DNA of 16,408 nucleotides from a virus (Duplodnaviria; Heunggongvirae; Uroviricota; Caudoviricetes): the IMG/VR virus record IMGVR_UViG_2617271072_000010, positions 1 through 16,408 of that record. One strand, given 5' to 3'. Of the stretch, positions 6,559 to 16,408 are shown one piece after another. Positions within the stretch are counted from its first letter, which is position 1. Every line of letters begins with the position of its first letter. A model generated the notes under the pieces. That model was given only the letters and a program-made list of their open reading frames with translations. It ran no database searches and had not been told where the DNA came from. The position numbers and the translations under genes were made by a program.

Positions 6559-7332
6559 TTAACAGCTCAGGGATCGGGATTCGAAGAAATGCGGCTGCGT
6601 CTCGCGCGGATTTGCGGGACTGGTGATGTTCTTGCCGAACATGCAACCTTTCGCTGTCAGCGACCAGAATTTTTTGATGTTGTTAATCGCGGTACGGCTG
6701 TATCGTTCGCGCTGCTCGACGATCCCCAGCTTCACCATCTGGTGATATGCCTGATTAGCCGTCAGGCGGATACCATACTGTTTCAGCAGTGCACTCAGTG
6801 ACAGTGTCGGGCGACTTGAGCCATCGTGTGCATCAGCAGGAGCATCAATGGCATAGCGCGGTGCCAGATTCGGTAAGCCAACAGCCTCCTGAAGTTTCTG
6901 ACAGGCTCCAAGCACTGAAGAGTTAGACAGATTTAACTCCCGGCGCATAAAGTCCAGCAGAATCACGCCAGCCTGCATCTTGTCAGCAGCCTGTCCGGAT
7001 AATTTTTCAGGTGCACTGGTTACCATGTCGAAAGTACGGATCACCTTCAGATGGAATGACGGGCTGATCCACATTGCATAGGCATACACCAGTTCTTTGC
7101 AGACATACGTCCCCTGGTTATTTCCGCCACGAATAACGTTAACTGGCTCTATATTGACCGAGTTGCAAATCTGCAACTCGCTTATTAAACGTTCAGTTTG
7201 CTCATTGCGGAGCCAGAATGCAGGCTTATGCTTATCCAGAGAACCGGCAGCCCTGTGCAGATCGTTCAGGCTGTAACGCCCATAAGCATCACGACGAACT
7301 TCAATACCATCAATGACCATCAGATTATTCAT
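6559..7332 (-). CDS. KilA-N plus KilAC (ANT) domain protein, antirepressor-like, about 257 aa
   Basis: MNNLMVIDGIEVRRDAYGRYSLNDLHRAAG...KPAFWLRNEQTERLISEL resembles the KilA-N domain; C-terminal half resembles KilAC. Start set at the ATG at 7332 (RBS AGGAG); the ORF track starts at 7365. Confidence 0.6.
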   Translation of the reverse strand: MNNLMVIDGIEVRRDAYGRYSLNDLHRAAGSLDKHKPAFWLRNEQTERLISELQICNSVNIEPVNVIRGGNNQGTYVCKELVYAYAMWISPSFHLKVIRTFDMVTSAPEKLSGQAADKMQAGVILLDFMRRELNLSNSSVLGACQKLQEAVGLPNLAPRYAIDAPADAHDGSSRPTLSLSALLKQYGIRLTANQAYHQMVKLGIVEQRERYSRTAINNIKKFWSLTAKGCMFGKNITSPANPRETQPHFFESRSLSC

Positions 7333-7351
7333 ACTTCGTTTCTCCTCTTGA

Positions 7352-7741
7352 TCAGGCGGCTGCACCCGCCGTTTTCTCGTACTTACTGATAGTGATCTCG
7401 ACCTTCCCTTCCGGGATAACCGGTCCCCACTCCACCAGCATTCTTTTCACCTGACTGTCGTCTTCCCACACACCCGCGTGGGTCAGGGCGTCAAACAGCG
7501 CCTTGTTATAGTTGTCCAGATCGCGGATCCGGTTATCCGGAGGAAACAACACGATCTCCACTGAAGCTGGTGCCGACGTTGGTTTCGGCAGACGGCGTAA
7601 CTGCTCAATGATGGCGGCACACGCCGCGCCCTGGAATTTACGCCCCGCCGCGCTTATCAGGCTCTTACCTGCAAAAGCCCCTTTGTTGGGGTGTCGCCAG
7701 TACGTGTTCACGCTGGGGGGAAACGGCAGGATCAGCTTCAT
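7352..7741 (-). CDS. rusA: RusA-family Holliday junction resolvase, 129 aa
   Basis: LPFPPSVNTYWRH... and ...RDLDNYNKALFDALTHAGVWEDDSQV match the RusA signature. Confidence 0.8.
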   Translation of the reverse strand: MKLILPFPPSVNTYWRHPNKGAFAGKSLISAAGRKFQGAACAAIIEQLRRLPKPTSAPASVEIVLFPPDNRIRDLDNYNKALFDALTHAGVWEDDSQVKRMLVEWGPVIPEGKVEITISKYEKTAGAAA

Positions 7742-8064
7742 ACTTTCAGCCCCCTCTCATGTAACCAGTGGGCTGCACGCAGCCTGGCGTTTTCCTCACC
7801 GGCAAGCAGTGCGCGGATAATCCCGACCACCTCGCTGTCGTCGTCCTTCACCGCGGTATGAAGAGTTATCCCCCGGGCCACGCCACGCTTTATCGTGATG
7901 ACGCCTTTTTTCTCCAGTGCGCGAAGATGCTCCACCGCTGCATTCACCGAACGGTATCCCAGCATGGTTGCCACCTCCTGATTGGTTGGCGGAAAGCCAC
8001 GTTCTTGCTGGTAAGAAATCAGCATATCCAGCACCTGCTGCTGTCATTGAGTTAACGTCGTCAT
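7738..8064 (-). pseudogene. LexA N-terminal DNA-binding-domain protein (no peptidase domain) with an in-frame TGA at codon 7
   Basis: Frame from the ATG at 8064 (coupled to the upstream stop as TAATG) reads MTTLTQ-stop-QQQVLDMLISYQQERGFPPTNQEVATMLGYRSVNAAVEHLRALEKKGVITIKRGVARGITL, parallel to E. coli LexA [68 protein letters not shown]. The TGA (8044-8046) sits where LexA has Arg. Reinitiation at GTG 8034 or ATG 8025 could still give a 95-98 aa product. Confidence 0.55.
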
Positions 8065-8558
8065 TAAGCCCCCACGTAATTCCCTGAAAGATACCATTCA
8101 TCACCCGATACAGCGCGCTTGCTGCTTTTCCGTAAGCACAGCTCACGACGCGCCAGAAAGTTGTTTCGTTCTGGCTGGGAGTGACTTTCACGGAATGCCA
8201 CCATCCACACCGTTGCAGCACGACGGTATAACCCCCTCGACTCCAGTTCTTCAGCCTGGCGGGTCAGGCATAAAATCACCCGGGGATCGTTAGTGCCGAC
8301 ATAGAAATTGCGCACAGGTCTGGTTTCTCGAACTGGTTGTGGTTCCGGTTCCTGCGCTCTCTCAGTCAGGCGCGGGAAATGTCTGCGTGTATCTCCTTCA
8401 CAACGGTGAGCCACACGCCCACTCTGACGTAACTTGCTTGCTGACTGCAGAACGCGCTGCCGTGAGTAACCAGCAAAAGCATCCGCAATGTCTCCGGAAG
8501 TACACCCCGGATGGGCTTCAATGAATTTCTGAACGTCATTTAACAGACTCATGATCAC
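8064..8558 (-). CDS. Hypothetical regulator with a PerC-like C-terminal region, 164 aa
   Basis: C-terminal ...AEELESRGLYRRAATVWMVAF... resembles the PerC/Pch family motif from memory; N-terminal half looks like a small winged-helix domain. Tentative. Confidence 0.4.
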   Translation of the reverse strand: MIMSLLNDVQKFIEAHPGCTSGDIADAFAGYSRQRVLQSASKLRQSGRVAHRCEGDTRRHFPRLTERAQEPEPQPVRETRPVRNFYVGTNDPRVILCLTRQAEELESRGLYRRAATVWMVAFRESHSQPERNNFLARRELCLRKSSKRAVSGDEWYLSGNYVGA

Positions 8559-9496
8559 CCCCTGAATCCTGCCGGGATCTGGCTGTAGTCCACGTTGTCG
8601 TAACTGGCTTTGAAGTACGGGTCTTCACGTTTTTCTGTGTGCGTGCTGACGGACGGCGATAAGCGCAGGGAAAGCTCATCCCATTTTTCCCGCAACTTCG
8701 ACGGGCTGAGCACGTTACGGCACCAGAACGGATCGCGGCTGACGCGGCTGTACATCTCGCAGATTTGTTTGTGAGTACGACCATCCTGCACACACATCAG
8801 GCGAATTTCGTTTGCCCAGGCTGTCCAGTTAGGTTCTTTGGGACGAACCACCTCGCCGTCACATTCGGCGGCCTGCTCGTACAGGGCGATGATTTTTTCC
8901 AGAGCCACTGTGCGCAGGTCAAATCATCCTGCGTTCCCCACTGGCGCTTTTTAGGGCTGAATACAACCGCATCAGGATGGCGAGTTAAAAACTCCTGTTC
9001 AGCCGTCTGCGTGTCCGGTTGCGAAGCGTCCGGACGAGAAGTTTTTTTTATCTGACGGATCATGTTTTGATTTTACTGACGGATCCCCGCCAGATTCTGA
9101 CGGGTGAAAACCCGCTTTTTTGCCAGATTTCGACGCATCAAATTTTGACGGGGCAGATTTTGATGCGTCAGATTTTGACGGGTCAGAATCTGACAGTTGA
9201 GAAAATGCCGCTGCCTGAAGCTTCGCAACGTTAAGCTGATAAACATTCGACGCATTACGGTTACCCTGGCGACGCGCCTTACGCGTTAACCAGCCTTCTG
9301 CTTCCAGCCGTGCGATAGCCGTTCTGACGGTACTCATCCCCGCGCCAATCTGACGGGCAATGGTTTCAATTGATGGCCAGCACACACCTTCGTCATTACT
9401 GAAATCAGCCAGGCGGGCCATAATTGCCACGCTGGATAACTTCATGCCTGATGCAGCGCAACCATCCCATACATAGCCGGTTAATTTAGTGCTCAT
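8555..9496 (-). pseudogene. Phage replication initiator (N-terminal winged-helix domain, iteron-encoded linker, DnaT-like C-terminal domain) split over three frames
   Basis: Fragments 8999-9496, 8797-9063 and 8555-8908. The N-terminus (...LADFSNDEGVCWPSIETIARQIGAGMSTVRTAIARLEAEGWL...) is replication-initiator-like; the C-terminus ends ...YSQIPAGFRG, as E. coli DnaT does (...SQIPPGFRG). One base fewer in the A8 run (9042-9049) and one more in the A6 run (8893-8898) give a single ORF of about 313 aa. Confidence 0.6.
9049..9199. repeat. Iteron-like tandem repeats (consensus CAGATTTTGACGG), probable phage origin inside the initiator gene
   Basis: Five contiguous copies with 14-16 bp period at 9124-9199 plus three more degenerate copies upstream (9051, 9073, 9091), flanked by a T8/A8 run at 9042-9049. 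They encode the SKSD/SKSA-rich linker. Confidence 0.6.
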
Positions 9497-9844
9497 GACC
9501 GACCTCTATTTCCCTGAATTTACGACGAAACTGTTCGAGCGGACTGAAGCATTCATGCTCATAACCTTCGCGGAGGTAGATAACCCGTTGTGTTTCCGGC
9601 TCCCAACGAATGACTCTGACGGGCACTCCGTAGTGATCTTTGAACCAGCGGTTAACTTGTCGCAAAGGACTGTCTCCTTCTGCCGGTTGAAATCACCCAC
9701 AGCCCACTCTGCAAAGCTGTGGGTTACAATTTCCCTGTCACCTGGTACATTCACTGCATAGCAATATTCCACCTTCGCTTTTCCACCCGGTACAGGAAGC
9801 GCAATCAGTTGCGAGCGACGGTAGTGTGTTGTTAAACTGTTCAT
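9487..9844 (-). CDS. Hypothetical early protein; coding signal changes frame near 9690 (one broken gene or two overlapping small genes)
   Basis: The frame from the ATG at 9844 is protein-like for about 63 codons, then becomes Ser-rich and low-complexity; another frame reads ...[56 protein letters not shown] and ends overlapping the initiator start. Confidence 0.3.
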
Positions 9845-9913
9845 GCGTTAGTTTCTCCACAACCAGAAGCAATCGACGCCACGACGCCCGGAGCTGCACA
9901 CTCGCGGGCGTCA

Positions 9914-10411
9914 TTACTTTCTGAAATGCAAAAAATTTTTGTAGACAAGTGCTGCATGCTCCTGCAGCTTCGAAATTGAGAGATACAGCTCGTCGTTAAT
10001 TGCTGTCTTCTCATGCGGTTCCACTACACCGTCTTCGATTGCTGAACGAATCTGTTTTGAATAACTGCCGATCTGTTCAATGACTTCCAGCAGACGCTGG
10101 TTAATATCGGCGTTGTCCACATCCTCGACGTCAGGAAGAGACACAAAGACGCCATTTGCAGACTGCGCCACAGCATCAGCAATGAAGTGAGTGCCACCAG
10201 CACGCTGTAAAACCATTGCCCATCCCAGCGGGAAAATCTGATCGCCATCTGCACGAAGGCGGTTGAATAAAGCGTTTTCTGTTACATCGAGCCAGTCAGC
10301 CGCTTCAGCGTAACCACCCGGCAACGCCGCGATAGTTTTTCTGACAGCTTTCACGTACCACTCAGGCTGTTTTTCTATTTTCCAGTGATGCTTACCCACG
10401 ATTAGCCTCAT
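9914..10411 (-). CDS. CII-like phage regulatory protein (CP76/YdaT-like), 165 aa
   Basis: Sits in the cII position after cro; segment ...GYAEAADWLDVTENALFNRLRADGDQIFPLGWAMVLQRAGG... parallels the lambda CII HTH region. Family name recalled, not searched. Confidence 0.5.
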   Translation of the reverse strand: MRLIVGKHHWKIEKQPEWYVKAVRKTIAALPGGYAEAADWLDVTENALFNRLRADGDQIFPLGWAMVLQRAGGTHFIADAVAQSANGVFVSLPDVEDVDNADINQRLLEVIEQIGSYSKQIRSAIEDGVVEPHEKTAINDELYLSISKLQEHAALVYKNFLHFRK

Positions 10412-10502
10412 CGTTCTGTGGTTAAAAATTGAAAGTGTTCTGCTAATCTTTCGGATAGATATCCGGTCTTAAGTCAGATTTCGTAATTGCACCTGACGTG
10501 CA

Positions 10503-10643
10503 TTACTCAAGTTTTTTAGCCAGCACAAAACTGGCTTTTTTATAGCCATTGAAAACCAGCCGTAAGTAGCCAGGTGTTGAGCCAACTTTTCCGGCCAACT
10601 CGCCCTGCTGTTCTTTGGTTAAAGAGTCCCAATACGCTTTCAT
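10503..10643 (-). CDS. Cro-like small HTH protein, 46 aa
   Basis: MKAYWDSLTKEQQGELAGKVGSTPGYLRLVFNGYKKASFVLAKKLE; ATG at 10643 preceded by GGAGG; divergent from the repressor across the operator region. The ORF track extends it to 10982, antisense to cI, which is unlikely to be real. Confidence 0.5.
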   Translation of the reverse strand: MKAYWDSLTKEQQGELAGKVGSTPGYLRLVFNGYKKASFVLAKKLE

Positions 10644-10733
10644 ACAATATGTACCTCCGGTGTACATATTACATGATTGAAATGAACCTTCAAGATACTT
10701 GTACCTTAACGGTACAAGGGTTTTAATTTCGTT
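10644..10733. promoter_or_regulatory. Immunity-region operator/promoter segment with two palindromic operators and divergent promoters
   Basis: O1 ATATGTAC-N7-GTACATAT (10647-10669) and O2 CTTGTACC-N5-GGTACAAG (10698-10718), both perfect. Minus-strand promoter TTGAAG-N16-TAATAT (10688-10693, 10666-10671) overlaps O1. No Shine-Dalgarno before the repressor ATG. Confidence 0.5.
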
Positions 10734-11406
10734 ATGAAAACAATCCATGACATCCGGCGGTCTAACGCCAGAAAACTGAGAGATGGTGTTGGCGGGAATT
10801 CTTCCTTTGCCACTATGATTGATCGCGAGCCAACCCAGACCAGCAGGTTTATGGGAGATGGTGCTACTAAAAATATCGGTGACAGCATGGCACGACACAT
10901 CGAAAAATGTTTCGACCTGCCTGTCGGATGGCTCGATCAAGAACACCAGACAACGAACATCACAAAAAACCTGATGTTTCAATCACTAATAAACAAATCA
11001 CATTAGTCCCTGTCATATCATGGTACAGGCCGGAGCATGGAAAGAAGTTGGATATTCTGAGGTTGATTTGAGCACAGCAGAAACGTATCCCTGCCCTGTA
11101 CCCTGTGGGGAAATGACTTATATCTTGCGGGTGATAGGTGATTCAATGATTGATGAGTACCGCCCGGGAGACATGATTTTTGTCGATCCTGAAGTACCTG
11201 CCTGCCACGGTGACGACGTTATTGCATTGATGCACGATACAGGTGAAACCACCTTCAAAAGGTTGATAGAAGATGGGACACAGCGTTATCTCAAAGCGTT
11301 AAACCCAAACTGGCCTGAGCCTTACATTAAGATCAACGGTAATTGCTCTATAATTGGTACAGTGATTTTCTCAGGAAAACCAAGAAGATACAAAATCAAA
11401 GCCTAA
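10734..11406 (+). pseudogene. CI-like repressor (HTH domain plus S24 LexA-like peptidase domain) split over three frames
   Basis: 10734-11006 encodes the HTH domain (...IGDSMARHIEKCFDLPVGWLDQE...); 11020-11406 encodes the S24 domain (MVQAGAWKEV...RVIGDSM...TTFKRL). A third frame between them reads ...KQITLVPVISW. One extra A in the A6 run (10964-10969) and one extra base near 11021 would give an intact repressor of about 222 aa. Confidence 0.7.
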
Positions 11407-11418
11407 TCAATGTTTATG

Positions 11419-11441
11419 AACCTGCTTCGGCAGGTTTTTTT
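11419..11441 (+). terminator. Rho-independent terminator after the repressor gene
   Basis: ACCTGC-TTCG-GCAGGT perfect 6-bp stem followed by T6-T7, 13 bp after the stop codon. Confidence 0.6.
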
Positions 11442-11445
11442 ATAC

Positions 11446-11478
11446 TTGACAATGTACCTTTGAGATACATAATGTACC
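11446..11478 (+). promoter_or_regulatory. pL-like promoter candidate with operator-like motifs
   Basis: TTGACA (11446-11451), 16-bp spacer, CATAAT (11468-11473). ATGTACC occurs twice and TACAT-a-ATGTA forms a palindrome (11466-11476), the same TGTAC core as the operators at 10647-10718. Confidence 0.35.
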
Positions 11479-11558
11479 CAAGCGAAACAACGAACAGGCA
11501 GGACGCCCACGAAGTAGCCGCCTGGGGCATATGAAGTCCAGGATGATTCGTTAGCAAC

Positions 11559-11580
11559 AAAAAAGCGCCCTATAGGACGC
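11559..11580 (-). terminator. Terminator-like hairpin downstream of the minus-strand membrane-protein gene
   Basis: Minus strand GCGTCC-TATA-GGGCGC (one G-U) followed by TTTTTT; 234 bp from the gene end, so the assignment is weak. Confidence 0.3.
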
Positions 11581-11813
11581 TTCGCTCTTTAACAATCTGG
11601 AGATCCCCAACACTTAACGGGATTTTGGCTTCGGTTCTGGCGGTGAAGGACGAGGTTTTAAGGGTATATGATCCTCTTTCCATGTATATATAAATGCATT
11701 CATTTGGTCATCTCAATATAGAATCCATTATTAATTCATACTCATAAAGCCTGTGTGACTTTGGTGATGGTGGTCTGGGCTTTGGAGGTACATGGTTAGG
11801 GATTATGGGAATT

Positions 11814-12293
11814 CTATTTGTCATTATTACACCTTTTTGACCGAGGCAAATCTCCAGCAAACCATGCGATAACGCTATGCATGAATGATATTTCTGACTC
11901 ATCAACACGTCCCAGCGCAATACAGGTCCGTTTGAACGCAGCATCTTGTAAAGATCTCCATGGATTACTATCAGCGTCTTGAACCTTTAAAAACCGAGTG
12001 CGTAGTTCGTCATCAGAAAGGGAGGAAAACTCAACAATCAACCTTTTATACTGTCGCATCTGTTCCTTTGATAAGCCAGCTTCCTGCCCAAATTGGTATA
12101 CCAATTGAAGCACCGACAAAATAGCTACAGATGCGCCAAAAATAAACATATTGCTATATGGCGCAAAAACAGAAAAGCCCAAGACAATGAGAACAAGAGT
12201 TATGCTCTTGTCTATCCGATTTAAAAGGGTGTAATTCATTTTCTCAAGAAAGAAAGAATAATGAATATCGAATGCTAGATCGTCTCGAGTCAT
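11814..12293 (-). CDS. Low-GC membrane protein (two predicted TM helices, soluble C-terminal domain), 159 aa; superinfection-exclusion-type moron candidate
   Basis: ATG at 12293 with RBS AAGGGA; hydrophobic segments ITLVLIVLGFSVFAPY and FIFGASVAILSVLQLVYQF; opposite strand to the surrounding operon, adjacent to the immunity region. No family recognised. Confidence 0.5.
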   Translation of the reverse strand: MTRDDLAFDIHYSFFLEKMNYTLLNRIDKSITLVLIVLGFSVFAPYSNMFIFGASVAILSVLQLVYQFGQEAGLSKEQMRQYKRLIVEFSSLSDDELRTRFLKVQDADSNPWRSLQDAAFKRTCIALGRVDESEISFMHSVIAWFAGDLPRSKRCNNDK

Positions 12294-12399
12294 CTCTATT
12301 CCCTTACATTTCAGGTTTCGGCTCAGGGATCGGTGCTGGTCTCTGATTTACCGGAACATGAAATTTTTCATTGCTATCTACGTACATATTTCCTTCCTA

Positions 12400-12449
12400 C
12401 CTGTTGTTGGGATATCCAGATTATACCGAATCCTTGTTGTTGGGGAATA
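12400..12449. repeat. Two direct repeats CC(T)TGTTGTTGGG(G)A about 32 bp apart in a non-coding stretch
   Basis: Copies at 12400-12414 and 12432-12449, read directly from the sequence; function unknown. Confidence 0.3.
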
Positions 12450-12673
12450 ACCAGGTCCACCTCGCCTGATGTGGCTAAAAGCAGGCACATAACAGCTAAG
12501 TATTTTCAACCAGAGAGAATCCTTAGCGTTGTGGTGAATGCGGCTCAGCGCACGCGGGTTAAGGTTGAGGCTGACAGTCGACCTTCTGTGGATACCCACC
12601 CGTCTGGTGTACAACCTTCGCCAGGCACCGGGAGGCACCCGGCACCACAACTTTATGCTGTGTGTTGTCTTGG

Positions 12674-12718
12674 CGGTACCAGCTTGTACCCTTGCTTCCG
12701 GCTGGTACCGTCCTTTTT
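12674..12718 (+). other. 10-bp perfect stem (CGGTACCAGC / GCTGGTACCG) with a 17-nt loop, followed by T5; possible 3' end of a plus-strand RNA
   Basis: Read directly from the sequence; lies inside the GC-rich 12300-12900 stretch where every overlapping ORF translates to low-complexity sequence. Confidence 0.3.
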
Positions 12719-12930
12719 ACAAAACAGAGAAGAGCATCATCGGACGACGGGCTCATAACCCAATCCATCCGGGCGGCTGCCACCACAGGTGTTCTTCTCT
12801 GTTTTGTGGAGAAACTAACCGCCCTACGGGGGCATTTATGGAAATGTAATTGACTCAATAATCGCCGGACGGTGAGGGCTTCCTTTTACCCGAATTCAGC
12901 GCGGTGCAGCGCATATACGTGGAGAACAAA

Positions 12931-13437
12931 ATGTCATTTATTAAAACTTTTTCCGGGAAGCATTTTTATTATGACAGGATAAATAAAGACGACATCGTTA
13001 TTAACGATATCGCGGTTTCCCTTTCAAATATCTGTCGCTTTGCAGGACATCTTTCACACTTCTACAGCGTCGCCCAACATGCGGTGCTTTGCAGCCAGCT
13101 GGTACCGCAGGAATTTGCTTTTGAAGCGTTAATGCATGATGCAACAGAAGCGTATTGCCAGGACATCCCGGCTCCACTGAAACGCCTTCTTCCTGACTAT
13201 AAACGGATGGAAGAAAAAATAGACGCCGTAATCCGTGAAAAATACGGGTTACCCCCGGTTATGAGCACGCCTGTGAAATATGCCGATCTCATCATGCTGG
13301 CAACCGAACGCCGCGATCTCGGGCTTGATGATGGCTCTTTCTGGCCTGTACTGGAAGGCATCCCGGCAACAGAGATGTTCAACGTGATTCCACTGGCACC
13401 GGGCCAGGCCTACGGGATGTTTATGGAACGTTTTTAA
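12931..13437 (+). CDS. HD-domain phosphohydrolase (YfdR-like), about 168 aa
   Basis: H...HD motif (RFAGHLSHFYSVAQHAVL...ALMHDATEAYCQDIP); start set at the ATG at 12931 (GGAG 7 nt upstream) rather than the ORF-track start at 12904. YfdR resemblance is from memory. Confidence 0.7.
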   Translation: MSFIKTFSGKHFYYDRINKDDIVINDIAVSLSNICRFAGHLSHFYSVAQHAVLCSQLVPQEFAFEALMHDATEAYCQDIPAPLKRLLPDYKRMEEKIDAVIREKYGLPPVMSTPVKYADLIMLATERRDLGLDDGSFWPVLEGIPATEMFNVIPLAPGQAYGMFMERF

Positions 13438-13458
13438 CGAGTTATCGGAGTTACGCAA

Positions 13459-13821
13459 ATGCGCATGAATGTTTTCGAAATGGAAGGGTTTCTTCGCGGG
13501 AAATGTGTACCGCGAGATCTGAAAGTGAACGAAACAAATGCTGAGTACCTAGTACGTAAATTCAACGCGCTTGAAGCTAAATGTGCGGCACTGGAAAACA
13601 AAATAATACCAGTGTCAGCTGAACTGCCACCAGCAAATGAAAGTGTTCTGTTATTTGATGCTAGTGGAGAAGGCTGGCTGATTGGCTGGCGTTCTCTCTG
13701 GTACACATGGGGGCAAAAAGAAACCGGAGAATGGCAGTGGACATTTCAGGTCGGGGACCTTGAAAACGTCAATATCACTCACTGGGCAGTAATGCCGAAA
13801 GCACCGGAGACTAAGAAATGA
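13459..13821 (+). CDS. DUF551-domain prophage protein (YfdS-like), 120 aa
   Basis: C-terminal ...GEWQWTFQVGDLENVNITHWAVMPKAPE matches the DUF551 signature common in enterobacterial prophage early regions. Confidence 0.6.
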   Translation: MRMNVFEMEGFLRGKCVPRDLKVNETNAEYLVRKFNALEAKCAALENKIIPVSAELPPANESVLLFDASGEGWLIGWRSLWYTWGQKETGEWQWTFQVGDLENVNITHWAVMPKAPETKK

Positions 13822-14033
13822 GCGTGATAAAAACTCATACAGGAATTGTTATCACCCGAGACGGTGAAAAGCGGATGAAATTACATTCCACTGAAACGTC
13901 CTGGGTTGCCGGACGTTGTGAATCCTACGACAAAAAGACTGGTTACCGTTGGGGGGCGCCAAACATGCGTCGCCGTCTGATCCTGGACAGCATCAGGCCA
14001 ATAAAACAGGTAGCAACCAGAGAACAAAATTAA
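13818..14033 (+). CDS. Hypothetical small protein, 71 aa
   Basis: ORF coupled to the upstream gene (start overlaps the upstream stop by 4 nt); no family recognised. Confidence 0.35.
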   Translation: MSVIKTHTGIVITRDGEKRMKLHSTETSWVAGRCESYDKKTGYRWGAPNMRRRLILDSIRPIKQVATREQN

Positions 14034-14094
14034 TTATCAGGACTGGAATTTGATATTACTGCCCGAGTGCAGCGGGCTAAGTGGAGAAACAGCC

Positions 14095-14304
14095 ATGGCA
14101 AAACTAATGAAAGCGAGCCAATGGGGACGCCGTGAATTCTCTAATGGCTCAATTCCTGACAACCGAACGATAAAACGTTGGGTCGAGAACGGTCTACTCA
14201 TGGGACGCATCGTGGACGGTTCTGTTTTTGTCTGCGAAACAGAAAAATGGGGAGTCGACTCAATGGTTAGTCAAGCTGTTCGCAAGTTAATAAACGAGGG
14301 GTGA
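14095..14304 (+). CDS. xis: Excisionase (lambda Xis-like), about 69 aa
   Basis: ...QWGRREFSNGSIPDNRTIKRWVENGLLMGRIVDGSVFVCETE... parallels lambda Xis (...WNARQRRPRSLETVRRWVRECRIF...); start set at the ATG at 14095 (GGAG upstream); immediately precedes the integrase. Confidence 0.6.
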   Translation: MAKLMKASQWGRREFSNGSIPDNRTIKRWVENGLLMGRIVDGSVFVCETEKWGVDSMVSQAVRKLINEG

Positions 14305-15489
14305 CCATGGCGGCAAGGCCACGTAAAAAAGAATACAGACATCTTCCTGATTATCTGATTTTTGATAAAGATCGAGGTGTTTATAAATTCACACTTATTA
14401 CTGGAAAGAAGAAAAATATAGGTAAGGATAGGGCAATAGCCATTGCAATCGCCAGAGAGTACAACCTGAGGATGAGAGCAGAATTATCTCCATCAGTAGA
14501 AAATCTTATTAGAGAATCTGGCGGTGTTATCGGAGAAGCAAAACCATTTGCTGAACATGTTGATCACATAATGACCCGGATTATCGAAGACGAACGTCCT
14601 TCCCAGAGCACCTTAGATGACTGGAAAAATGACGCTCTACGCGTAAAAGCGTTTTTTCGTAAATGTTCCGGCATGCGATATCGAACTTGAACACGTTAAT
14701 ACCTACATCAACAAATATCATGCCAGCGCATCCGCAAATGTGCAGAACAGAAAGGTCAGCTTTCTTAAAAAAGTTGTTCTCTTATGCGGTCGATGAATCA
14801 CTAATGCTGGATAACCCGGCCATCAGAAAAAAAATGCGTAGGACTGATGAGAAGAAAAAGACGGCGCCTGTCACTCGAGCATTTTATAGCTATCAGGCAG
14901 GCCGCTGCACCATGGTTAAGAACAGCAATGGACCTAGCATTGCAAACTACACATGCACGACTCGAAGTATCGCGAATCCGTTACTCAATTCGCGAACCTA
15001 AAGACGGTATATGTGGATGTGTCTGGTTCGAACAACCACAAAATGGCATATATGGGACGCTTTACATCCACAGGCAAAAAGTGCAAAAAAAAAGAGGCGT
15101 CACACGTTGCAATACCAATTGGTGAAGAGTTGAAACGGATAATTGACGATAGCCGAGATAATGTGGCTAGTCCGTTTGTCGTTCACAGAATCCCAGAACG
15201 CCAAGTTAAACGAAGCAAAGAGGTTTCACATCCGACACAAGTTGCACCAGACTATTTGAGTCGATCGTTTTCAGCAACGCGAGACAAGCTAGGTTTATGC
15301 GACAATCTACCGATGGATGAAAGACCAACCTTTCATGAAATCAGAGCTCTGGCAGCGCATCTTTTCGATCAGCAGGGTATCGATCCCCAAGGACGAATGG
15401 CACATAGCGACGCTCAGTCGACTAAGATTTACACTCAAAACCACATTAATTGGATTGTCGTTCCACACGGGGAAATCAAAACTGGTTAA
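14301..15489 (+). pseudogene. int: Lambda-family tyrosine integrase split over four frame segments
   Basis: The N-terminal arm-binding region and the C-terminal catalytic region (...PTFHEIRALAAHLF...AHSDAQSTKIY...) are recognisable and follow lambda Int in order, but the frame changes at T6 (14652-14657), A6 (14767-14772), A8 (14827-14834) and A9 (15085-15093). Confidence 0.8.
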
Positions 15490-15688
15490 AATTGCATTAA
15501 TTCAGATTTTATCCTTGCATTGCTATGGTACAGACCTAAACAAGCATGTGCCAAAAACAGGCTATTGTAGGGATACTCACATCTTTCAGGTATTATATTT
15601 TGCATAACCGAAAGTGAGGCAACAAACAGAAATGCCATGCTTTTAAACGCGATACTTCACAATAAGAGTTAAGGTAAAAGGAGCGATA

Positions 15689-16408
15689 ATGGAAGATTTA
15701 GTATGTAGTTGGTCACCGAAACTAATCGTTGAACTGATAAAAAGCATTGCATGGCCAGTTGTTGTTCTTATCATCGGATTCAGATTCCGAACTCGAATTT
15801 TTGAAGTTGTCAGTTCTTTTTTTTCTAAAAATACGCTATCAGAAATATCCGCGACTTTATCGGGTATATCGGCAAAATTCATAGCAGAGAAACAAACAGC
15901 AGAAGTATTAGAATCTTCAAATTCTAATTTGGCGAGCTTACAAAAGAATACGAGCATTGAAGCTATAAGAATACACCATGAACAATTTAAAACTGAATTC
16001 AGTGAAGAATTATATCAAATCATATTGAAACAAGCATCTGATCTAGATACTGACAATGAAATTAAAATTGATTTATTGGCACGAGAAATATCTCTTTTGC
16101 AAAGTGCTGTAAGATACTTTGAAATAAACAAGGTATTATTCCGCTCACAATATGACTTATTTTATACAATTGCTAGCAATGGTGGTTATATCCGCAAAGA
16201 AGATGCTATTCAGTTCTTTGAAAAAACAAAAAATCATAATAAAGAAGCTTTCGCGGATTGGGATTGGATCAAATATATTTCGTATCCAGTAAGCAATAAA
16301 CTCATTTATGAAAGTGATGCTGGTTACAAACTCACTACGATAGGAAGCTCATATGTAGCTTTTATGTCAAAGAACCCACAATTGATTGACGAGCTTGCTA
16401 AATTATAA
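15689..16408 (+). CDS. AT-rich hypothetical protein with an N-terminal TM anchor, 239 aa; cargo gene distal to the integrase
   Basis: Ideal RBS (AAGGAG, 5-nt spacer) before the ATG at 15689; hydrophobic segment LIVELIKSIAWPVVVLIIGF; stop codon is the last three bases of the window. No family recognised. Confidence 0.5.
   Translation: MEDLVCSWSPKLIVELIKSIAWPVVVLIIGFRFRTRIFEVVSSFFSKNTLSEISATLSGISAKFIAEKQTAEVLESSNSNLASLQKNTSIEAIRIHHEQFKTEFSEELYQIILKQASDLDTDNEIKIDLLAREISLLQSAVRYFEINKVLFRSQYDLFYTIASNGGYIRKEDAIQFFEKTKNHNKEAFADWDWIKYISYPVSNKLIYESDAGYKLTTIGSSYVAFMSKNPQLIDELAKL

Follow-up and report, generated by a model that had tools for sequence, protein, structure and literature searches.

In this study, we identified a probable vegetative replication origin at positions 9027–9196 of the window, the 16,408-nucleotide stretch of viral DNA analyzed here, in the linker-coding part of the prophage's own initiator gene. 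From comparative sequence analysis, we assign this reading a probability of about 0.8. The origin element is located between the codons of an HTH_36 N-terminal domain and those of a lambda-O-homologous C-terminal domain, and it is best regarded as a credible and very widespread variant of the lambda-type in-gene origin. The original prediction of an in-gene origin with the lambda O/ori arrangement receives strong comparative support, both from selection at the DNA level and from a position equivalent to that of ori-lambda. If correct, this location tells where prophage replication starts after induction, and it explains the unusually conserved, repeat-rich middle of the gene and the many partial copies in databases.

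The window belongs to an SfII/SfIV/CPS-53-type lambdoid prophage. Its sequence differs from that of E. coli EC_J_9 by one substitution and 11 homopolymer indels, and from strain 2196 by 12 homopolymer indels, 11 of which also appear in the comparison with EC_J_9. Matches to the gene region are present in 2725 of 5426 complete E. coli genomes, with most of the region in 1576 of them, and the region is also found in the Shigella serotype-converting phages SfII and SfIV. In the literature on this origin, on SfIV/SfII replication, and on yfdO of CPS-53, we found no description of the origin; the SfIV genome paper lists only a "replication module" and does not mention an origin.

The initiator gene and its protein

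The initiator gene and its parts are as follows.

8555–9496, minus strand: replication initiator gene, 942 nt (313 amino acids in SfIV gp41 and E. coli relatives)
9203–9496, minus strand: N-terminal winged-helix DNA-binding domain, amino acids 1–98 (Pfam HTH_36 at amino acids 23–70)
8666–9003, minus strand: segment encoding the lambda-O-like C-terminal domain (about amino acids 165–277 of SfIV gp41)
8558–8584, minus strand: C-terminal tail SQIPAGFRG, which differs at one of nine positions from SQIPPGFRG, the C-terminal end of E. coli DnaT
9042–9049, unstranded: T8 homopolymer, read as A8 in the gene sense; all close relatives have T7; first frameshift
8893–8898, unstranded: T6 homopolymer, T7 in relatives; second, compensating frameshift

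Among the open reading frames of the window, the gene is split in three by two compensating homopolymer indels, as indicated by a position-by-position comparison with SfIV. Its DNA is 98.5% identical to SfIV gp41, and near-identical loci in RefSeq encode a single 313-residue "helix-turn-helix domain-containing protein". Both frameshifts are most likely sequencing-type errors in homopolymer length, so the biological gene is probably intact. The wording "repaired initiator" in the original prediction implies a pseudogene; the breaks are homopolymer-length differences typical of sequencing errors. The 8-nt A/T run noted next to the repeats does exist as the T8 tract, but its extra base is one of these indels. 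For the A-run, we rejected both programmed frameshifting and transcriptional slippage, because the run length varies from A4 to A7 among homologues and the two indels belong to the 12 that separate the window from strain 2196.

The intact SfIV orthologue matches PHROG 391 ("replication initiation O-like") over residues 1–313 (E 1.6e-135). In Pfam, the N-terminal domain is assigned to HTH_36 (E 1.5e-11), with weaker matches to GntR, MarR, DnaD_N, and RepC-N, and it gave no match to Phage_rep_O (PF04492), which the lambda O control detected at 5.7e-36. This winged-helix domain is the presumed iteron-binding domain. Its AlphaFold2 model, built from a shallow alignment of 24 sequences, is poor (pLDDT 65). 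In tblastn, the C-terminal part of lambda O matches the C-terminal domain coding region of the window, and the domain shares 34.9% identity with lambda O (E 4e-18). BLASTP to lambda O gave 30% identity over 216 residues (E 1e-25), with both the linkers and the C-terminal domains aligned. The "DnaT-like C-terminal domain" of the original prediction does not hold: residues about 165–277 are homologous to lambda O, and the last nine residues alone match DnaT. DnaT homology of the C-terminal domain was rejected by Pfam (no match at E up to 10, against 3.7e-21 for the DnaT control), by a sequence search of the PDB (no match to DnaT, whose DNA-binding domain is represented by 2RU8/4OU7), and by profile-profile comparison with hhalign (probability 0.07%).

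The DnaT C-terminal tail is near-invariant among 105 DnaT orthologues, and other members of the initiator family have longer, 20-residue matches to it (RD-N--S-PD--IP-GFRG). Within the family, the N-terminal domain and iteron module is joined to at least four different C-terminal modules, a modular pattern known for lambda O. The arrangement of a binding domain and its own sites within one gene would hold for a second, unrelated-looking domain that is freely combined with different helicase-recruitment modules.

Iterons, A/T-rich block, and palindrome

The elements of the candidate origin, all unstranded, are listed in descending order of position.

9122–9196: five-iteron tandem array with an exact 15-bp pitch, each iteron a 13-bp palindrome of the type GTCAGATTTTGAC
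9104–9121: 18-bp spacer separating the proximal iteron from the array (plus strand GTGAAAACCCGCTTTTTT), with A/T tracts and a 5-bp hairpin
9087–9103: proximal iteron, nearly palindromic over 17 bp, CCGCCAGATTCTGACGG (minus strand CCGTCAGAATCTGGCGG)
9040–9085: A/T-rich block, candidate unwinding region, with two 24-bp-spaced repeats, each consisting of a half-iteron and a GATC
9027–9036: G+C-rich perfect palindrome CGTCCGGACG, just past the A/T-rich block

The 13-bp palindrome GTCAGA-W-TCTGAC is present in six full copies, five in the tandem array and one proximal. The plus-strand 13-mers start at 9091, 9124, 9139, 9154, 9169, and 9184, and a repeat search returned the same number of copies with spacings of 33, 15, 15, 15, and 15. 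Tandem Repeats Finder reported a period of 15 with 4.3 copies at 9124–9187 (score 79) and also a period of 30 (score 93). The 13-mer of the original prediction, CAGATTTTGACGG, allowing up to 3 mismatches, has 15 matches in the window compared with 5.4 ± 2.2 in dinucleotide-preserving shuffles (n = 200), none of which reached 15. Eight of the 15 matches are located in 9087–9196, six on the plus strand and two as reverse-strand echoes that arise because the motif is palindromic. The repeats are therefore real, lie where they had been placed, and exceed chance expectation. Of the eight 13-bp copies originally counted, six are full, and the other two, at 9050–9061 and 9074–9085, carry only the half-motif CTGACGGATC. 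The array described as five copies at 14–16 bp does contain five copies, but its spacing is exactly 15 bp.

As predicted, the repeats lie inside the initiator gene and encode its linker, which consists of (D/A)(P/A)SKS pentapeptides at codons about 100–137; the array itself, on the minus strand, encodes DPSKS-DASKS-APSKF-DASKS. The proximal iteron is the best-conserved copy in the family (ungapped consensus CAGAATCTGGnGGgGATCC across 73 species-level loci); even the most divergent homologues have kept it, as CCTCCAGAATCTGGAGG. With the 15-bp pitch, adjacent sites face nearly opposite sides of the helix, unlike the spacing of lambda and plasmid iterons. A plus-strand match at 9101–9114 was considered as an antisense terminator and rejected, as Klebsiella phage 1 LV-2017 does not preserve its 5-bp stem. 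A promoter scan of 8400–11500 gave no signal beyond chance.

The A/T-rich context is real but modest, with a GC content of 27.5% across 9040–9079. The 40-bp duplex stability of the block is at the 5th percentile in the window (z about 1.7), compared with z 3.1 for the A/T-rich region of lambda. The 40-nt segment with the lowest GC content in the gene coincides with the block after the last iteron in 60 of 73 homologues (mean 30% vs 52%). GATC sites, located here at 9058–9061 and 9082–9085, occur in the block at a density of 1.85 per 70 nt compared with 0.275 elsewhere, a 6.7-fold enrichment. An inverted repeat of at least 6 nt is present at the place of the G+C-rich palindrome in 39 of 73 homologues.

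Conservation of the repeat DNA

Comparison of homologues indicates that selection acts on the repeat DNA and not on the encoded peptide. In comparisons with four phage homologues picked solely for protein similarity, 81–95% of the identical residues in the linker are encoded by the same codon, compared with 39–47% in the N-terminal domain. Across 48 species-level homologous loci, which were selected by iteron register, codon identity is 84% in the array and 43% in the N-terminal domain, and the array is higher in 48 of 48. Amino acid identity is nevertheless lower in the array than in the N-terminal domain (75% vs 86%), despite the better-kept synonymous sites. Among 64 haplotypes of near-identical genes, third positions are polymorphic at 3 of 45 sites in gene nucleotides 316–450, compared with 21% in the N-terminal domain and 30% in the C-terminal domain. 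Furthermore, phiP27 and a Citrobacter prophage have an extra motif copy in another reading frame (encoding TLQNL, not PSESG) in which the DNA sequence is kept. The flanks of 325 iterons, analyzed with the core positions fixed by the search pattern, are dyad-symmetric (-5 T / +5 A, -6 G / +6 C, and -7 C / +7 G), which is the pattern expected of a palindrome that binds protein.

Of 80 species-level homologues, which represent many Enterobacterales genera, about 70 have the array in the corresponding place in the gene, and the motif is unchanged across genera in which the synonymous sites of the N-terminal domain are saturated. The possibility that the repeats are absent from homologous initiator genes, which had been named as grounds for refutation, is answered in the negative, because they are present in nearly all of them. 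Homologous arrays have 3–8 copies, and copy-number variants step by 15 bp. The core block is present in 79 viral contigs, and in 76 of these the N-terminal domain is encoded 390–435 nt upstream, in 15-nt steps. Satellites with the origin and no initiator were sought among these contigs and rejected: two of the remaining contigs are too short upstream, and the sole exception (L246) reflects an insertion of the IS66 family into the array. The neighboring genes differ among relatives and none is replication-related; therefore, the N-terminal domain of the initiator is the only constant partner of the repeats.

Where the N-terminal domain is most divergent and its recognition helix is altered, the flanks of the iterons are altered as well. 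This covariation between recognition helix and iteron flanks was seen in about three lineages; the proximal iteron of every member shows the "divergent" flanks. All records returned by a tblastn search of plasmids for natural mini-replicons were either of prophage size or carried a prophage. The 16-kb "plasmid" pZ1322PEC0161-2 is a fragment of a lambdoid prophage with its own DnaC-like gene, and it is therefore not decisive as a mini-replicon.

Proposed mechanism and alternative explanations

We propose the following initiation scheme. Transcription of the early-right operon and translation would supply the initiator, and dimers of its N-terminal domain would occupy the palindromic iterons to form a nucleoprotein complex resembling the lambda "O-some". 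The complex would destabilize the adjoining A/T-rich block, where the half-iterons may hold the opened strands. The C-terminal domain and the DnaT-like tail would then recruit the host DnaB-DnaC complex directly, a step suggested by the lack of a P, DnaC, or DnaB gene in the phage. Dam methylation and SeqA may modulate firing at the GATC pair.

An alternative is that the repeats are initiator-binding sites with a mainly regulatory role (autorepression, copy control by titration or handcuffing, or a transcription roadblock), with strand opening and replication start at another place in the phage genome. DNA-level selection and the palindromic form of the sites are consistent with this explanation too, the adjoining A/T-rich block is not very unstable, and plasmid iterons act in both initiation and control. 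We nevertheless consider it unlikely, because the place of the repeats relative to the homologous C-terminal domain is equivalent to that of ori-lambda, the GATC-enriched, lowest-GC block after the last iteron is conserved in most of the genes, and no second motif cluster was found elsewhere in the window or in homologous loci.

The conserved DNA could also work through another factor, such as the PerC/YfdN-like protein encoded downstream or a host protein (DnaA, IHF, or SeqA), or through an mRNA structure that controls translation of the initiator. The sense-strand RNA does fold better than shuffles (z -3.75), the GATC cluster suggests involvement of SeqA/Dam, and some divergent homologues carry TGATCCACA, an 8/9 match to the DnaA box. 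However, YfdN-like genes are located downstream of only about one in four initiators, in contrast to the nearly universal array, the DnaA-box-like word is missing from the sequence of the window, the primary sequence of the palindrome is conserved beyond mere pairing potential, and an Rfam search of the window matched zero families, which together make this explanation very improbable. Finally, the repeats could be a low-complexity Ser/Asp/Lys pentapeptide linker that arose by slippage and has no DNA function, but although they encode a plausible flexible linker and vary in copy number in frame, as from slippage, we give this almost no credence in view of the far better kept synonymous sites beside a lower amino acid identity than in the flanking domain, the motif kept in the other frame in two relatives, the palindromic unit and flanks, and the same motif across genera with saturated N-domain sites. 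Replication origin function remains the preferred reading of the array and its adjoining elements.

Helicase loading and the DnaT-type tail

The original prediction that no P-like or DnaC-like loader follows the initiator was borne out: lambda P, DnaC, and DnaB queries gave no match with E < 1 in the window, and the annotations of near-identical loci list no gene for P, DnaC, or DnaB. In a census of the family, 64 of 72 initiators lack a P/DnaC/DnaB-type gene within at least 1.5 kb downstream. Initiators with the DnaT-like tail have no loader gene in 45 of 47 loci; in the other two, a DnaC-like gene is located directly downstream, mirroring the dnaT-dnaC operon of the host. A lambda-O-like tail is accompanied by a lambda-P homologue (2/2 loci) and an acidic tail by DnaC (3/3 loci).

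One possible explanation, which we offer tentatively and consider rather doubtful, is that no phage helicase loader is needed because these initiators carry the DnaT C-terminal peptide (...IPxGFRG) as a shared handle for capturing host DnaB-DnaC, and that the tail type predicts the loader type. If true, the origin would be a natural, sequence-specific entry to the DnaT branch of helicase loading that is independent of DnaA and PriA. The delivery of DnaB-DnaC by DnaT is still described as undefined (PMC5778457), and the loader-less state combined with a DnaT-type tail provides a testable handle on this open point in E. coli replication restart.

Comparison with known systems

The candidate origin closely resembles the lambda and Stx phage origins, in which dyad-symmetric iterons are located within the initiator gene between the codons of its two domains, followed along the direction of transcription by an A/T-rich region and then a palindrome; the published layout of ori-lambda agrees with this order (PMC7466680). 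The lambda palindrome, to the right of the A/T-rich region (L007, 1563–1590), has its positional counterpart here at 9027–9036. In ori-lambda, four palindromic iterons are located at O codons 117–145, compared with six at codons about 100–137 here. In both systems, the iterons encode the linker, the C-terminal domains are homologous, and, as with the 6-iteron Stx origins, the number of iterons varies among relatives and adds residues to the protein (PMC7466680). The systems differ in the N-terminal domain (HTH_36 here, Phage_rep_O in lambda O), in the C-terminal tail (DnaT type here, lambda-O type in lambda), and in the P gene, which is absent here. The iterons here are 13–17 bp with a 15-bp pitch in 5 + 1 copies, compared with about 19 bp, 20–24 bp, and 4 copies in lambda, and the A/T-rich region is weaker than that of lambda and carries two GATC sites.

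DopC and DopE are O/P-like genes of lambdoid origin that have become domesticated (Brezellec et al. 2017, PMC5509034). DopC combines an HTH_36 N-terminal domain with a DnaT-related C-terminal region (PMC5509034), indicating that HTH_36 "O-like" proteins and DnaT-derived modules do combine in nature. DopC has a folded DnaT C-terminal domain, whereas the initiator described here has a lambda-O-like C-terminal domain and only a 9-residue DnaT tail. Moreover, DopC is chromosomal and paired with the P-like DopE, whereas the present initiator has no P partner, and the DopC locus is without iteron-like sequences according to its authors (PMC5509034), in contrast to the clear iteron array here. E. coli DnaT (primosomal protein I) has the extreme C-terminus IPxGFRG in common with the initiator. 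The initiator, however, lacks the DnaT DNA-binding domain (PF17948) and shows no profile similarity to it, and DnaT itself has no sequence-specific DNA-binding domain and no origin.

Theta plasmid origins of the RepA/RepE/pi type resemble the candidate origin in having arrays of direct repeats for a winged-helix initiator beside an A/T-rich unwinding element (a putative one here), and control by site number is possible in both systems. Plasmid iterons measure about 17–22 bp, recur at intervals of about two helical turns, and are found outside the rep gene; the repeats here are palindromic, have a 15-bp pitch, and lie inside the coding sequence.

Within the PHROG 391 family, SfIV (gp41), SfII, Klebsiella phage 1 LV-2017, phiNP, YeP2, and phiP27 (L17) all carry the same array. 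SfIV and SfII show no difference from the initiator type of the window. Other members have the same N-terminal domain and iteron module with other C-terminal modules (Phg_2220_C and phiP27 type), and DnaC/DnaB genes are present in a few members other than SfIV and SfII.

Iteron array within the initiator gene

The linker-coding part of the 313-aa initiator gene (8555-9496, minus strand) contains an array of palindromic repeats (iterons). Tandem Repeats Finder located a period-15 array of 4.3 copies at 9124-9187, and a repeat search found six copies with spacings of 33, 15, 15, 15, and 15. With up to 3 mismatches, the 13-mer of the original prediction matched the window 15 times, compared with 5.4 ± 2.2 in shuffled sequences (15 reached in 0 of 200), and eight of the 15 matches lie at 9087-9196. 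A more fitting description of the repeat unit is a 13-bp palindrome (GTCAGA-W-TCTGAC) with 2 bp of spacer. The repeats are thus present as predicted, with corrections: the eight proposed copies are six full and two half copies, the tandem spacing is exactly 15 bp rather than 14-16 bp, and the proposed 8-nt A/T run is truly 7 nt long (T7 in E. coli EC_J_9 and strain 2196).

Elements of the putative origin, within the minus-strand initiator gene
9122-9196: tandem array of five iteron copies
18 bp between the array and the proximal iteron: spacer with A/T tracts
9087-9103: sixth (proximal) iteron, a 17-bp near-palindrome
Beyond the proximal iteron: two repeats 24 bp apart, each only a half-motif plus GATC, within the 40 bp of lowest GC content in the gene (27.5%)
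9027-9036: perfect palindrome CGTCCGGACG, beyond the half-motif repeats

Between the array and the proximal iteron, on the strand antisense to the initiator gene, is a small terminator-like hairpin with a T-run (9101-9114, plus strand) that shows no conservation in Klebsiella phage 1 LV-2017.

Prophage setting and integrity of the gene

The window represents the early region of a lambdoid prophage; its early-right operon is carried on the minus strand.

Gene order of the minus-strand operon
CII-like (9914-10411), DUF4222, initiator (8555-9496), PerC/YfdN-like, LexA-DBD-like, RusA, KilA-N, DUF968/HNH, Q antiterminator

The initiator region shares 98.5% identity with gp41 of Shigella phage SfIV and 99.8% with several E. 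coli chromosomes. In E. coli and Shigella, the element is extremely common; 2725 of 5426 complete E. coli genomes have a match to the initiator region. Positions 7056-16408 equal E. coli EC_J_9 except for 1 substitution and 11 single-base indels, and the full-length window and strain 2196 are separated by 12 substitutions and 12 indels. All of the indels fall in homopolymer runs, and the two strains agree with each other against the window at 11 of 11 shared sites.

Single-base indels relative to E. coli strain 2196 (all but 5016 also relative to EC_J_9)
5016, 8892, 9042, 9936, 10963, 11021, 12821, 13431, 14652, 14767, 14855, 15085

The ORFs broken by these indels include the initiator, the CII/YmfL-like gene, and ORFs of the integrase region. 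In the initiator gene, T8 (9042-9049) and T6 (8893-8898), both T7 elsewhere, shift the frame out and back. Of 80 near-identical copies on viral contigs, 75 encode exactly 313 aa, and another three, one or two repeats longer, are also intact. Because of this homopolymer pattern and the intact viral-contig copies, we treated the initiator as biologically intact and its breaks as sequencing-type errors; the indels look like homopolymer sequencing error in the source assembly rather than decay. At the window's left end, the prophage is cut off by an IS3-family element with a programmed-frameshift transposase (14-1185), which lies beside a Rha-family gene. The same IS lies inside the KilA-N gene in EC_J_9 and has therefore moved between close relatives.

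Conservation and modularity among homologues

Absence of the repeats from homologous initiator genes, which the original prediction named as evidence against it, was not observed: roughly 70 of 80 species-level homologues carry the array at gene nt ~300-430, with 3-8 copies at a 15-bp pitch, in Citrobacter, Enterobacter, Kosakonia, Kluyvera, Buttiauxella, Yersinia, Pantoea, Rahnella, Providencia, Proteus, and others. In 76 of 79 viral contigs with the proximal-iteron/GATC block, the winged-helix N-domain is encoded 390-435 nt upstream in 15-nt steps (390, 405, 420, and 435 nt); two of the other three have too short an upstream sequence, and one has an IS insertion in the array. These steps reflect copy-number polymorphism, which parallels the difference between the four iterons of lambda and the six of Stx phages. 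Otherwise near-identical genes (L034, L041, and L042) have one or two additional repeats and encode 318- or 323-aa proteins. In one viral-contig copy (L246, 1100-1200), the spacer that joins the tandem array to the proximal iteron is interrupted by an IS66-family element, which separates the N-domain and array from the remainder of the gene.

The proximal iteron and the next 40 nt align without gaps over 73 loci (consensus CAGAATCTGGnGGgGATCCGTcAGTAAatTCAA). In 60 of 73 homologues, the block beyond it has the lowest GC content of any 40-nt window in the gene (30% vs 52%), and GATC density in the proximal-iteron/A/T-rich block is 1.85 per 70 nt vs 0.275 elsewhere (73 loci). The GATC pair at 9058-9061 and 9082-9085 is conserved. 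In Klebsiella phage 1 LV-2017, phiNP, and YeP2 (L003 3951-4760, L004 3870-4751, L005 4477-5190), the initiator is followed directly or after a short distance by a DNA adenine methylase gene, and the SfII/SfV replication module includes a methylase (SfIV paper); phage-encoded Dam is possibly linked to origin control. Divergent homologues (L166 3995-4020, L168, and L159) have TGATCCACA, an 8/9 match to the DnaA box TTATCCACA, in the A/T-rich block; it is absent from that of the window (TGATCCGTC).

The most divergent N-domains (52-67% identity) have the recognition helix STVYGAL or STIRGAI instead of STVRTAI, and the iteron flanks are altered in these homologues (CCTCCAGAATCTGGAGG). Covariation of helix and flanks is suggestive, with about three lineages as its basis. 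The N-domain-plus-iteron module is joined to lambda-O-like, Phg_2220_C, or phiP27-type C-terminal modules. Many database proteins (P0047-P0109; L144, L167) consist of initiator residues 1-79 followed by other phage genes (at least 10 different), including RusA, DUF968/HNH, terminase, tail, methylase, PerC, capsid, and IS transposase. Their common left breakpoint directly follows CGCCAGGGT (window ~9263, gene nt ~234, after ...RKARRQG), their right ends vary, and the origin is missing from all of their genes; the shared breakpoint suggests a hot spot for deletions or some site-specific event. A 15,977-bp sequence deposited as a circular E. coli plasmid (L170, NZ_CP148542.1) has lambdoid early and lysis genes only, among them a 53%-identical initiator homologue and, after it, a gene for a DnaC-like 'ATP-binding protein'; the sequence is either a defective prophage excised as a circle or an artefact of assembly.

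Selection on DNA and alternative roles of the repeats

Four independent tests indicate that selection acts on the DNA rather than on the peptide. In an alignment with four phage homologues whose only selection criterion was protein similarity (Klebsiella phage 1 LV-2017, Citrobacter phiNP, Yersinia YeP2, and E. coli phiP27), identical residues use the same codon at 81-95% in the linker vs 39-47% in the N-domain. Among 48 homologues from a one-genome-per-species collection, chosen for the same iteron register, the values are 84% in the array vs 43% in the N-domain (array higher in 48 of 48), while amino acid identity is lower in the array (75%) than in the N-domain (86%). Across 64 haplotypes of near-identical genes, third positions are polymorphic at 3 of 45 sites in gene nt 316-450 vs 21% in the N-domain and 30% in the C-terminal domain. 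phiP27 and a Citrobacter prophage have an additional motif copy that is read in a different frame because it lies 32 nt from its neighbour; it encodes TLQNL, not PSESG, yet retains ACCC-TCAGAATCTG. Dyad symmetry extends outside the search pattern in 325 iterons (-5 T/+5 A, -6 G/+6 C, -7 C/+7 G).

Iterons that bind the initiator in a purely regulatory role are an unlikely alternative to an origin. It is less likely still that the conserved DNA serves another binding factor or an RNA structure: the sense RNA does fold well (z -3.75), but such folding is expected of a string of palindromes, and an Rfam search of the window gave no match. A peptide-only feature is highly improbable.

C-terminus and helicase loading

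The predicted DnaT-like C-terminal domain fails at the domain level: PF17948 did not match the initiator (DnaT control, 3.7e-21), a PDB sequence search gave no DnaT match, and hhalign of the C-terminal domain against DnaT gave a probability of 0.07%. The likeness lies in the tail. The initiator ends in SQIPAGFRG (8558-8584, minus strand) and DnaT in SQIPPGFRG, and the match reaches 20 residues in other family members, e.g. ERDINAISQPNDTIPAGFRG (E down to 4.6e-6, 80-sequence set). Across 105 DnaT orthologues the motif hardly varies, and the last 9-20 residues of most family initiators (L090-L169) form the conserved DnaT tail RD-N--S-PD--IP-GFRG. The role of DnaT residues 154-179 (PMC4132743) and the manner in which DnaT recruits DnaB-DnaC (PMC5778457) are undefined in the literature. 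The domesticated DopC joins an HTH_36 N-domain to the C-terminal domain of DnaT, a related combination, and no iterons were found at its locus (PMC5509034).

The predicted absence of a P- or DnaC-like loader was borne out. Lambda P, DnaC, and DnaB queries found nothing in the window, SfIV and the near-identical E. coli loci have no annotated loader, and the genes neighbouring the initiator are transcription-type or of unknown function. In the 72 full-length family members whose downstream sequence spans at least 1.5 kb, loader type goes with tail type.

Helicase loader by initiator tail type
DnaT-like tail, 47 loci: none in 45; directly adjacent DnaC-like in 2
W..AA tail, 19 loci: none
Lambda-O-like tail, 2 loci: lambda-P homologue in 2/2
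Acidic tail, 3 loci: DnaC in 3/3
phiP27-type tail, 1 locus: DnaC and DnaB

We infer that the C-terminal domain and tail recruit host DnaB-DnaC.

Proposed mechanism and comparison with ori-lambda

We propose the following mechanism alongside the observed anatomy, DNA-level conservation, position, domain homologies, and lack of a loader. Initiator dimers would bind the palindromes via the winged-helix domain and form an O-some-like complex, which would open the A/T-rich block; the half-sites may stabilise the opened block. The C-terminal part of the initiator would deliver the host helicase. Operon transcription would pass through the origin, as in lambda, and Dam/SeqA may act on the GATC pair. 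We found no published description of this origin in the literature searched, and the SfIV genome paper does not mention it. The loader-less, DnaT-tailed design offers a testable way into the unsolved helicase-loading step.

In lambda, four ~19-bp palindromic iterons at a 20-24-bp pitch occupy O codons 117-145, followed by a 40-bp A/T-rich region and a palindrome, a layout also described in PMC7466680. In the present initiator gene, iterons span codons ~100-137 and the A/T-rich block spans codons ~140-152, with the palindrome just past the block. BLASTP aligned the initiator with lambda O over the linker and the entire C-terminal domain, starting where the DNA-binding domain ends (E 1e-25). The predicted lambda O/ori architecture holds for the in-gene position of the iterons and for the C-terminal domain, and a candidate A/T-rich unwinding block and a palindrome stand at corresponding places. 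The DNA-binding domain differs (Pfam HTH_36 here, Phage_rep_O in lambda O), as do the iterons, which are shorter and more closely packed. Furthermore, the A/T-rich block is only moderately unstable (z ~1.7 vs 3.1 in lambda), and the P gene is missing. In-gene iteron origins are textbook knowledge for lambdoid phages, and the putative HTH_36-type origin therefore extends the known lambda-type scheme rather than forming a separate class.
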